This document shows, one piece after another, positions 29,246-54,971 of a stretch of 64,000 nt of DNA. A program made the position numbers and the translations under genes. The number at the start of each line of letters is the position of its first letter. Position 1 is the stretch's first letter. Origin of the DNA: Escherichia coli (lineage in GTDB: Bacteria; Pseudomonadota; Gammaproteobacteria; Enterobacterales; Enterobacteriaceae); assembly GCF_013315695.1 (NCBI RefSeq), contig NZ_CP054353.1; one strand, written 5' to 3'. The notes under the pieces were generated by a model that saw only the letters and a program-made list of their open reading frames with translations, did no database searches and was not told where the DNA came from.

Positions 29246-29965
29246 ATGGCTACTCCACACATTAATGCAGAAATGGGCGATTTTGCTGACGTAGTTTTGA
29301 TGCCAGGTGACCCGCTGCGTGCGAAGTATATTGCTGAAACTTTCCTTGAAGATGCCCGTGAAGTGAACAACGTTCGCGGTATGCTGGGCTTCACTGGTAC
29401 TTACAAAGGCCGCAAAATTTCCGTAATGGGCCACGGTATGGGTATCCCGTCCTGCTCCATCTACACCAAAGAACTGATCACTGATTTCGGCGTGAAGAAA
29501 ATTATCCGCGTTGGTTCCTGTGGCGCTGTTCTGCCGCACGTAAAACTGCGCGACGTCGTTATCGGTATGGGTGCCTGCACCGATTCCAAAGTTAACCGCA
29601 TCCGTTTTAAAGACCATGACTTTGCCGCTATCGCTGACTTCGACATGGTGCGTAACGCGGTAGACGCGGCAAAAGCACTGGGCGTTGATGCTCGTGTTGG
29701 TAACCTGTTCTCCGCTGACCTGTTCTACTCTCCGGACGGCGAAATGTTCGACGTGATGGAAAAATACGGCATCCTCGGCGTGGAAATGGAAGCGGCTGGT
29801 ATCTACGGCGTCGCTGCAGAATTTGGCGCGAAAGCCCTGACCATCTGCACCGTGTCTGACCACATCCGCACTCACGAGCAGACCACTGCCGCTGAGCGTC
29901 AGACCACCTTCAACGACATGATCAAAATCGCGCTGGAATCCGTTCTGCTGGGCGATAAAGAGTAA
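29246..29965 (+). CDS. deoD: Purine nucleoside phosphorylase
   Basis: 239-aa from ATG 29246 ([26 protein letters not shown]). Confidence 0.95.
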
Positions 29966-29997
29966 TTGTGTTTTGCTGAAAGGCGATTGTCGTGTGA

Positions 29998-30027
29998 AGC
30001 CGGAGTGGGAGACTGCTCCGGCTTTTT
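29998..30027 (+). terminator. Intrinsic terminator of the deo operon
   Basis: agccggag...ctccggct stem followed by ttttt. Confidence 0.75.
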
Positions 30028-30095
30028 ATTATCTATTCATTTCTCTCTCCAGCTTGAATATTTTCGCTATACTTTTCAGTGAAATGTGTTAATAA

Positions 30096-30131
30096 ATCTA
30101 TTCAAGTATCTATTCACGAATCTATTCATTA
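30096..30131. repeat. Three tandem 12-bp direct repeats (atctattca+NNN) abutting the yjjJ start codon
   Basis: atctattcaagt / atctattcacga / atctattcatta read directly; a fourth copy of atctattca at 30031-30039. Confidence 0.8.
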
Positions 30132-31463
30132 ATGAGCGAATTGACCGATCTTTTATTGCAAGGGCCGCGTTCTGCCCCGGAATTGCGCCAGCGTCTGGCA
30201 ATCAGTCAGGCGACGTTCTCACGCCTTGTTGCCAGAGAAGATCGGGTGATTCGCTTTGGTAAAGCACGGGCAACGCGATATGCACTGCTGCGTCCTTATC
30301 GCGGAATTGAGCGTATTCCCGTATGGCGAGTGGATGATGCCGGAAAGGCGCATAAATTCGCCGACATTCAGTTGTGCTGGCCGCAGGGAAGTTGTCTGGT
30401 AACAGGCGCAGATGGCGACGAACGGTGGTTTGATGGTTTGCCCTGGTATTTGACCGATCTGCGACCGCAGGGGTTTTTGGGGCGCGCGTGGGGCAGGAAG
30501 TTAGCCGCGCAACTGAATCTTACTGAAGATATCCGTCTCTGGCAGGAAGAAGATGTGCTCTACGCCCTGACCGTATTTAGCGGTGAATACACCGGCGGCT
30601 GGCTGGTCGGGGAGGGGAATTATCAGCGATGGATTACTGCACAACGCCCTGCGGCAATTCCTCTGGATCAAAAACTCACCCATTACGAACAACTGGCAAG
30701 CGATGCACTGGCAGGAGAAATTGTGGGTTCTTCTGCGGGCGGTGAGCAGCCAAAATTTACCTGCTATGCACAAACGCCGTCAGGCAATAAACATGTGCTG
30801 GTTAAATTCACCGTGCCACAGCAAACCGCGGTCAGCCAACGTTGGGGCGACTTGCTTATTGCGGAATCTATTGCCGCGCAAATCCTGCGCGACGGCGGGA
30901 TCCACGCCATCGAGTCAACGGTGCTTGTAACAAGTAACAGGCAGGTATTCCTTGAAGCGGAACGATTTGACTGCAAAGGTAACGATGGTCGCTTGCCCAT
31001 TGTGTCGCTGGAGGCGGTGCAGAGTGAGTTTATCTCTTCTCCGGGATCGTGGCCGGAGGCTATGCGCCGTTTGTGTGAGCAACAACTTGTCACTCACCAG
31101 AGCGTGGCGCAAACAGAAGTGATCTGGGCGTTTGGGCGACTTATCGCCAACAGCGATATGCACGCAGGCAATTTATCATTTTATTTATCTGAACCACCAT
31201 TTGCGCTGACGCCCGTCTACGACATGCTGCCGATGGCCTATGCACCAAACAGCGCCGGAATGTTGCGTGATGCTGCCATTGAGGTGAGGTTTGATCTTAA
31301 CGTCAGTAAAAGTGCATGGTTAACGGCGATCCCGCTGGCGCAGCAGTTCTGGCAAACGGTCGCCGGAGATCCGCGTATCAGCGAGGCATTTCGCCACATT
31401 GCACAAGAAATGCCGGAAAAAATCCGGCAAATCGAAGGGAAAGTTGCCCGCATGGGCGGGTAA
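30132..31463 (+). CDS. yjjJ: HipA-like Ser/Thr kinase with N-terminal HTH (toxin-like)
   Basis: 443-aa ORF; N-terminal HTH-like segment and C-terminal HipA-like catalytic region (IANSDMHAGNLSF). Confidence 0.8.
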   Translation: MSELTDLLLQGPRSAPELRQRLAISQATFSRLVAREDRVIRFGKARATRYALLRPYRGIERIPVWRVDDAGKAHKFADIQLCWPQGSCLVTGADGDERWFDGLPWYLTDLRPQGFLGRAWGRKLAAQLNLTEDIRLWQEEDVLYALTVFSGEYTGGWLVGEGNYQRWITAQRPAAIPLDQKLTHYEQLASDALAGEIVGSSAGGEQPKFTCYAQTPSGNKHVLVKFTVPQQTAVSQRWGDLLIAESIAAQILRDGGIHAIESTVLVTSNRQVFLEAERFDCKGNDGRLPIVSLEAVQSEFISSPGSWPEAMRRLCEQQLVTHQSVAQTEVIWAFGRLIANSDMHAGNLSFYLSEPPFALTPVYDMLPMAYAPNSAGMLRDAAIEVRFDLNVSKSAWLTAIPLAQQFWQTVAGDPRISEAFRHIAQEMPEKIRQIEGKVARMGG

Positions 31464-54950: not shown

Positions 54951-54971
54951 CATCTATTCATTATCTCAATC

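Follow-up and report, generated by a model that had tools for sequence, protein, structure and literature searches.

Conserved 9-bp direct repeats over the hipH (yjjJ) promoter of Escherichia coli are probable operators for the winged helix of HipH itself

At the hipBA locus, HipB dimers bind four operator palindromes of the form TATCC-N8-GGATA, and HipA acts as a co-repressor (PMC8262856). Here we analysed a 64,000-nucleotide stretch of Escherichia coli DNA (contig NZ_CP054353.1 of assembly GCF_013315695.1; its whole length is called the window) and studied a group of 9-bp boxes, ATCTATTCA, that lie upstream of hipH (yjjJ), a gene for a HipA-type kinase with an N-terminal helix-turn-helix (HTH) domain of its own. 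We suggest that these boxes are probably operators read by the winged helix of HipH itself, which would place hipH under negative autoregulation, with an unstructured leader that lacks a Shine-Dalgarno (SD) sequence. In the broader sense, the boxes form a conserved cis-element that goes with HipH and, most probably, with the winged helix of this protein. They are undescribed in the literature searched.

Other described systems share parts of this arrangement. Winged-helix regulators of the OmpR/PhoB type use tandem direct-repeat sites, for example the pho boxes with their 11-bp period. The hipH locus resembles them in that a winged helix would meet head-to-tail repeats of the same orientation, about one turn apart, over a promoter, but the hipH period is exactly 12 bp at every locus and not 10-11 bp, and HipH has an ArsR/MarR-type fold, a kinase partner and no receiver domain, with self-repression as the expected outcome. 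At oriC, the DnaA boxes are 9-mers of the same orientation, 2 bp apart, for protomers of ~52 kDa. The hipH array is similar in its 9-bp sites of one orientation, its 2-3 bp linkers and a protein of ~50 kDa per site, so the DnaA-box arrays indicate that such dense packing is sterically possible, although their fold, sequence and function (replication initiation) are unrelated to those of the HipH boxes. BirA and the archaeal RbkR combine a catalytic domain with an N-terminal winged helix and are believed to control their own or related genes. As in these proteins, enzyme and winged helix of HipH are joined in one polypeptide and a ligand could couple the two roles, with cyclic di-GMP (c-di-GMP) as the candidate; the difference is that BirA and RbkR have palindromic or dimeric sites and serve metabolism, whereas HipH is a toxin-type kinase with direct repeats.

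As the earlier note on this stretch had described, four exact copies of ATCTATTCA are found on the + strand, three of them in tandem 12-bp units. Together they span 98 bp upstream of hipH, downstream of the deoD terminator, which forms the upstream limit of the hipH control region:

29996..30025, + strand: deoD intrinsic terminator, a 13-bp stem followed by a T-run
30031..30039, + strand: distal HipH box, an exact match to ATCTATTCA, at about -71 to -63 from the probable transcription start and upstream of the promoter
30096..30104, + strand: tandem HipH box 1, overlapping the end of the -10 region and the probable transcription start
30108..30116, + strand: tandem HipH box 2, inside a repressor-type footprint of Reg-Seq
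30120..30128, + strand: tandem HipH box 3, followed by the linker TTA and the ATG

Tandem Repeats Finder reports positions 30095-30128 with a period of 12 and 2.8 copies. The three 12-mers fill 30096-30131 and the hipH ATG at 30132 adjoins them directly (0 nt, where the earlier note had counted 1 nt), while the last 9-bp core stops 3 nt short of the ATG. The periodicity of one turn proposed for the array holds as a regular period, whereas 12 bp is slightly more than one helical turn. Exact ATCTATTCA occurs five times in the window against 0.32 expected, and none of 100 dinucleotide shuffles reached five. When one mismatch was allowed, the count was at chance level (12 against 11.4 expected), so the signal lies in the local cluster of exact copies. 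The fifth exact copy, at 54952-54960, is a single one; it starts 1 nt past the stop codon of a 428-aa open reading frame (C-terminus ...LRKLMMNHQ), before a terminator-like hairpin, and is compatible with chance. The window is 100% identical to E. coli ATCC 11775 across the region compared. Between deoD and hipH, the K-12 sequence differs from the window by three substitutions and no indels.

We then compared the locus with hipBA. Both are HipA-family kinase loci with several sites over their own promoter, and autoregulation by their own HTH is the likely logic. The differences are that hipH has no hipB gene and its HTH is fused to the kinase, that HipH carries an ArsR/MarR-type winged helix while HipB carries an XRE-type HTH, and that the hipH sites are 9-bp direct repeats with a 12-bp period rather than palindromes. 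No open reading frame for a separate hipB-like protein lies between the deoD terminator and hipH, and hipH is a single cistron, bounded by this terminator upstream and by the convergent lplA downstream. A search for TATCC-N8-GGATA with up to two mismatches found no site in 29960-30135, and the matches across the window were at chance level. The analogy to HipB operators that had been drawn for this array is therefore retained as a functional likeness, while the palindromes, the XRE dimer and the TATCC-N8-GGATA site are not. As judged from conservation and Reg-Seq footprints, the repeated sites overlap the hipH promoter as in autoregulated operators of the toxin-antitoxin type. The hipH system would thus work like an autoregulated toxin locus and not through a hipBA-type operator.

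To collect hipH loci independently of the motif, we used a protein-similarity scan of one genome per GTDB species, which yielded 20 loci from Escherichia albertii, Pseudocitrobacter, Buttiauxella, Dryocola, Cedecea, Leclercia, an Enterobacter, Erwinia, Yersinia and two betaproteobacterial metagenome-assembled genomes (MAGs). Boxes on the gene strand with a strict 12-bp period were found at all 20 loci, as well as in the window and K-12. There are three tandem copies in Enterobacteriaceae and Erwinia, four in Yersinia, and two in the betaproteobacterial MAGs (Burkholderiales and Gallionellaceae), where the boxes take the form of the ATCCATTCA variant and the HipH proteins have 38-43% identity. 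The last box ends 0-13 nt, mostly 1-3 nt, before the start codon. Each of the 19 Enterobacterales loci analysed also has a single distal box that starts 64-66 bp before the start of the first tandem box, just past the deoD terminator, which is kept upstream of it. In the 62 tandem boxes of 19 loci, the information content is 1.36-2.0 bits at the nine box positions and 0.23-0.67 bits at the three linker positions. Between distal box and array, the 56-bp spacer is variable at these 19 loci except for TTTAC(C/A) and, after 17 nt, TATAA running into the first base of box 1. The repeats are thus kept at every hipH locus examined, and by sequence comparison they are the best-conserved non-coding feature at each.

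A homologous-protein search gave Enterobacterales only among its top 120 matches. The gene order deoD-hipH is kept from Escherichia to Yersinia and Erwinia (L003-L020 and L119), which indicates that hipH there is an old chromosomal resident and not a recent mobile insertion. In the Enterobacteriaceae loci, lplA is convergent just downstream of hipH. A remote homologue (L147) adjoins a phage-type integrase gene.

The start codon was examined next. The ATG at 30132 is the first start after an in-frame stop at 30093-30095, alignments of hipH orthologues begin with this Met, and the match to the NCBIfam YjjJ model begins at residue 1, showing that this start is correct. Because the gap from the last box to the ATG differs among genera (0, 1, 2 or 3 nt), the repeats are not under coding constraint. 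The stop at 30093-30095 and this variation of the gap exclude the repeats as coding sequence behind an upstream start. A TTG start at codon 4 was excluded since K-12 has CTG there, and a leaderless mRNA with a -10 element inside box 3 since it would lack a usable hexamer and since the register differs from genus to genus.

A consensus promoter scan of the region found nothing, and the hipH promoter is discernible only through conservation and Reg-Seq footprints:

30068..30073, + strand: -35-like hexamer TATACT, aligning with TTTAC(C/A), which is conserved in other genera
30087..30095, + strand: extended -10 element TGtTAATAA, a conserved block abutting box 1; in other genera, TATAA followed by the A that opens box 1
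30102..30131, + strand: probable 5' leader of ~30 nt, nearly all box sequence, SD-less and unusually unstructured

Counted from the -10 element, transcription would start at about 30101-30104, which corresponds to K-12 4621738-4621741. The tandem array would then cover about -6 to +27, with the distal box upstream of the promoter, in agreement with conservation and the Reg-Seq footprints. In the Reg-Seq study, two repressor sites were described at the yjjJ promoter, one of them assigned to MarA, and the repeats were not mentioned (PMC7567609). The Reg-Seq reference position 4621716 (K-12) corresponds to 30079, and K-12 4621692-4621761 to 30055-30124. The '-35' activator footprint, at -18 to -6, maps to 30061-30073 and the '-10' footprint, at +9 to +22, to 30088-30101 (PMC7567609 supplement), which implies a start ~23 bp downstream of the computational reference. 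The unassigned repressor-type site, at +30 to +45, maps to 30109-30124, that is, to box 2 and the start of box 3.

HipH itself carries a candidate reader of the boxes, which was located on the gene as follows:

30132..31463, + strand: hipH (yjjJ) coding sequence, 443 aa, N-terminal winged helix plus HipA-type Ser/Thr kinase
30132..30296, + strand: winged helix-turn-helix region, residues 1-55, from a structure model
30204..30236, + strand: recognition helix, residues 25-35, SQATFSRLVAR, within the winged-helix region

The protein matches the NCBIfam model NF007297 YjjJ (PRK09775) over residues 1-442 with 676.2 bits (cut-off 401), and Pfam HipA_C covers residues 200-428. On the HTH, Pfam gave only a weak MarR_2 match (E = 0.37), and structure prediction was therefore used. 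Residues 1-55 were modelled as helix, helix, helix and wing with a predicted local distance difference test score (pLDDT) of 84.7. The closest folds of this domain are ArsR/MarR-type winged-helix repressors that bind double-stranded DNA, and residue 26 starts the recognition helix. A sequence search of the PDB with HipH gave no match at E <= 0.01. Residues S25, Q26, S30, R31, G43 and Y50 are invariant in 23-24 homologues, and the motif SQxTxSR opens the recognition helix. A profile search found 1052 sequence clusters below E = 1e-30, and the best 150 of them are nearly all 430-480 aa long and align from the N-terminus. It was previously noted that the HTH of YjjJ 'may' bind DNA and that the control of YjjJ was unknown (Gerdes and colleagues, PMC8262856).

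If the winged helix reads the boxes, a change in its recognition helix would be expected to go with a change in the box. We chose homologues with an altered recognition helix as representatives and compared their upstream DNA. All homologues with a Q26 helix (SQxTxSR), including the 20 genome loci, have ATC(T/C)ATTCA boxes. Four of the five homologues with an R26 helix (SR[PA]TLSR) have ATCG(T/C)TTCA instead (P0125, P0191, P0228 and P0203), and this R-type box is absent upstream of all 20 Q26 genome loci. Each of the four fitting R26 loci has two tandem copies with a 12-bp period beside the start codon, three of the four have a matching distal copy as well, and the four proteins are mutually 37-46% identical. 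Homologue P0138, with the helix DRSTVTR, has ATTGATGCA twice with a 12-bp period, and P0233, with NRTTIVR, has TTTACGATGCA twice, 77 bp apart; upstream of P0171, P0223 and P0185 the repeats are ambiguous only. Direct base read-out would be expected to give such a pairing, with Arg in place of Gln as the first residue of the recognition helix and GT in place of TA in the box.

We further scanned metagenomes with the pattern ATCYATTCA-N3-ATCYATTCA and obtained 120 matching stretches, 11 of which lie directly upstream of a HipH homologue on the same strand (34-55% identity, 2-5 tandem boxes). Even in rearranged layouts, namely L057 with a five-box array upstream plus one proximal box and L023 with 2+2 boxes flanking ~100 bp, the boxes still enclose the stretch that precedes the gene. 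No HipH homologue is adjacent to the other 109 matches. At least two of these (L061 and L064) are relics from hipH-less E. coli, and by our own rough estimate for 18 specified bases in a collection of very large size the remaining ones are probably mostly chance matches.

The E. coli population offers a comparison of loci with and without the gene. hipH is present in 1314 of 5426 complete genomes (about a quarter). In most other genomes, the hipH coding sequence is replaced right after the ATG by a gene on the opposite strand for an 87-aa XRE-like HTH protein, which lies between box 3 and lplA, while the distal box, the array and the ATG are retained. This gene (WP_000566155 / WP_000566150; for example L001 3167-3430 and L143-L146) ends with a stop codon that overlaps box 3, has become a pseudogene in some strains, and was seen in E. 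coli only, not beside hipH in other genera. A 45-nt segment containing the -10 element, the array and the ATG is identical in 1334 genomes, with yjjJ present in every sampled row, 95-99% identical in 3263 genomes and 90-95% identical in 681. The sampled hipH-less genomes have substitutions inside box 1 and the distal box. With lineage structure uncorrected, this sequence pattern fits boxes that are constrained while hipH is present and decay after its loss.

The persistence of boxes in E. coli without hipH would also be expected if they were sites of another host factor, either MarA or some other regulator. The MarA repressor site of Reg-Seq, at -24 to +18, maps to 30055-30097 and touches box 1, but it is mostly core promoter and leaves out boxes 2-3. 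No marbox (AYnGCACnnWnnRYYAAAY, up to three mismatches) was found in 29966-30131. In addition, the boxes stay with hipH in genomes of betaproteobacteria and in unclassified metagenomic ones, at 34-43% protein identity (genomic neighbours of hipH were compared for the Enterobacterales loci only), co-vary with the HipH recognition helix, and gather substitutions in hipH-less E. coli. We therefore consider another host factor to be highly unlikely as the reader of the boxes.

Changes in the array itself were also observed. The hipH-less strain 3CM (L146, NZ_CM137008) has lost 77 bp that include the promoter and box 1, so that its distal box is fused to box 2, apparently through recombination between two boxes. 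In the hipH-positive strain ETEC1720 (L159, NZ_CP122859, 2507-2554), the unit atctattcacga is duplicated to give four tandem boxes, and the array stays in its 12-bp register and still adjoins the ATG. Such a one-unit copy change and such box-to-box recombination would be in line with repeats that are functionless products of slippage or tandem duplication. This origin seems extremely improbable, since the cores are kept while the linkers are free across two proteobacterial classes and unclassified metagenomic contigs, the position relative to promoter and start codon is conserved, the distal copy stands at a fixed distance, and the boxes co-vary with the protein. In L160 (1724-2500, IS200C) and L161 (1125-2440, IS1A within ISEc60 remnants), insertion sequences lie in or beside the deoD terminator, a short distance before the distal box, and leave the boxes intact.

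The leader RNA was analysed for signals of translation. Within 20 nt upstream of hipH, the best anti-SD duplex has +0.1 kcal/mol, compared with -5.4 to -6.6 kcal/mol for deoB, deoD and lplA, which bears out the lack of an SD sequence that had first been noticed by inspection. The fold of 30101-30175 is weaker than those of 198 out of 200 shuffles (z = +2.24). An Rfam search of the leader found no family, as the sole match was a chance hit to a long non-coding RNA (E = 0.42), far below the gathering score. An SD-less and unstructured leader is compatible with weak translation. It is conceivable that the boxes act mainly in the mRNA, with the AUCUAUUCA repeats of the leader serving as a translational operator or enhancer for the SD-less start that is recognised by HipH, ribosomal protein S1 or another factor. 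This would agree with an array that lies within a few nt of the start codon at nearly all loci, with the position of boxes 2 and 3 inside the probable leader, and with the absence of both an SD sequence and structure. We nevertheless regard it as unlikely. The conserved distal box lies upstream of the -35 element and outside the hipH transcript, which argues for recognition of DNA rather than RNA. Moreover, the tandem arrays of L057 and L147 lie 50-120 bp upstream of the start and do not adjoin it, box 1 overlaps the -10 element and +1 and is transcribed only in part, and the HipH domain resembles repressors of double-stranded DNA while the leader matches no Rfam family. An action in the mRNA could also coexist with DNA binding rather than replace it. 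In some Yersinia and one metagenomic homologue (L013, L014, L015, L020 and L062), the last linker contains GGAG or GGA and the anti-SD duplex reaches down to -5.8 kcal/mol, indicating that the free linker can evolve into a ribosome-binding site.

Previous work on the protein reported that c-di-GMP induces hipH only when the gene is under its native promoter, that HipH binds this nucleotide with a Kd of ~7.6 uM, and that the HTH is required for HipH toxicity and nucleoid localisation (Liao et al., PMC11452175). Together with the weak repressor signature in Reg-Seq, these results would suit a HipH that binds the boxes mainly for a purpose other than repression, namely for activation or for tethering and sequestering the toxin on its own promoter. 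We hold this to be distinctly unlikely, because -6 to +27 is a classic position for a repressor and not for an activator, the promoter combines a poor -35 with a usable extended -10 element, no upstream activator footprint is seen in Reg-Seq, and three or four sites hold only a handful of molecules.

Taken together, a protein-binding array for autoregulation by the N-terminal HTH of YjjJ, as suggested in the earlier note, gains support from the co-variation of the box with the HipH recognition helix, from the distal box upstream of the promoter, from the winged-helix model, and from the Reg-Seq data that place the array over the -10 element, +1 and the early transcribed region. Through protomers on the tandem boxes that shut out or trap RNA polymerase, HipH would repress its own transcription. 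The distal box would probably contribute cooperativity, or a loop that spans the promoter. The short, SD-less and structureless leader built from boxes would further limit toxin synthesis.

Several points weigh against autoregulation by HipH. We infer from the above evidence that HipH binds the boxes, that it represses by binding and that the distal box cooperates, and the direction of regulation is read from position only. Of the conditions listed in Reg-Seq, heat shock alone gave the repressor-type footprint on boxes 2-3; the distal box has no called footprint, the mutagenesis ends at +45, inside box 3, and the region neighbouring boxes 2-3 is assigned to MarA. The R26 homologue P0185 (SRPTVSR) is off the pattern, and no obvious repeats were found upstream of the remote family members P0169, P0182 and P0262. 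The R26 lineages may all go back to one ancestral change, and independent co-variation events are therefore few. The main contrary result is a negative one: multiplexed chromatin immunoprecipitation with exonuclease treatment (ChIP-exo) of myc-tagged YjjJ in K-12 gave zero binding sites (Gao et al., PMC8464067). The same study did not recognise the HTH in YjjJ (PMC8464067), and low native HipH levels, which we assume here, might explain the negative result.

The induction by c-di-GMP leads to a more specific model, in which HipH is a one-protein, ligand-gated autorepressor-toxin. Apo-HipH on boxes with a 12-bp period would shut off its own promoter, and c-di-GMP would free the winged helix from DNA, with derepression of hipH and loss of HTH-dependent DNA damage as the results. 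A box 'code' for each lineage would be set by residue 26 and its neighbours (Q: TA or CA; R: GT), which would make HipH and its boxes a naturally re-programmable winged-helix/operator pair across more than 1000 clusters. This model is put forward tentatively, as one that is possible but rather unlikely.

Among the three Hip kinases of E. coli, HipH (YjjJ) is the one understood least, and it has no antitoxin gene. If the boxes are its operator, its HTH would gain a defined DNA target and the toxin a simple self-limiting circuit, and the promoter-dependent induction by c-di-GMP would gain a concrete mechanism. The negative ChIP-exo result should not be taken to mean that 'YjjJ has no HTH'. The pairing of Q26 with ATCTATTCA and of R26 with ATCGTTTCA would provide a specificity-swap pair and a rule for predicting operators across the more than 1000 clusters of the family.

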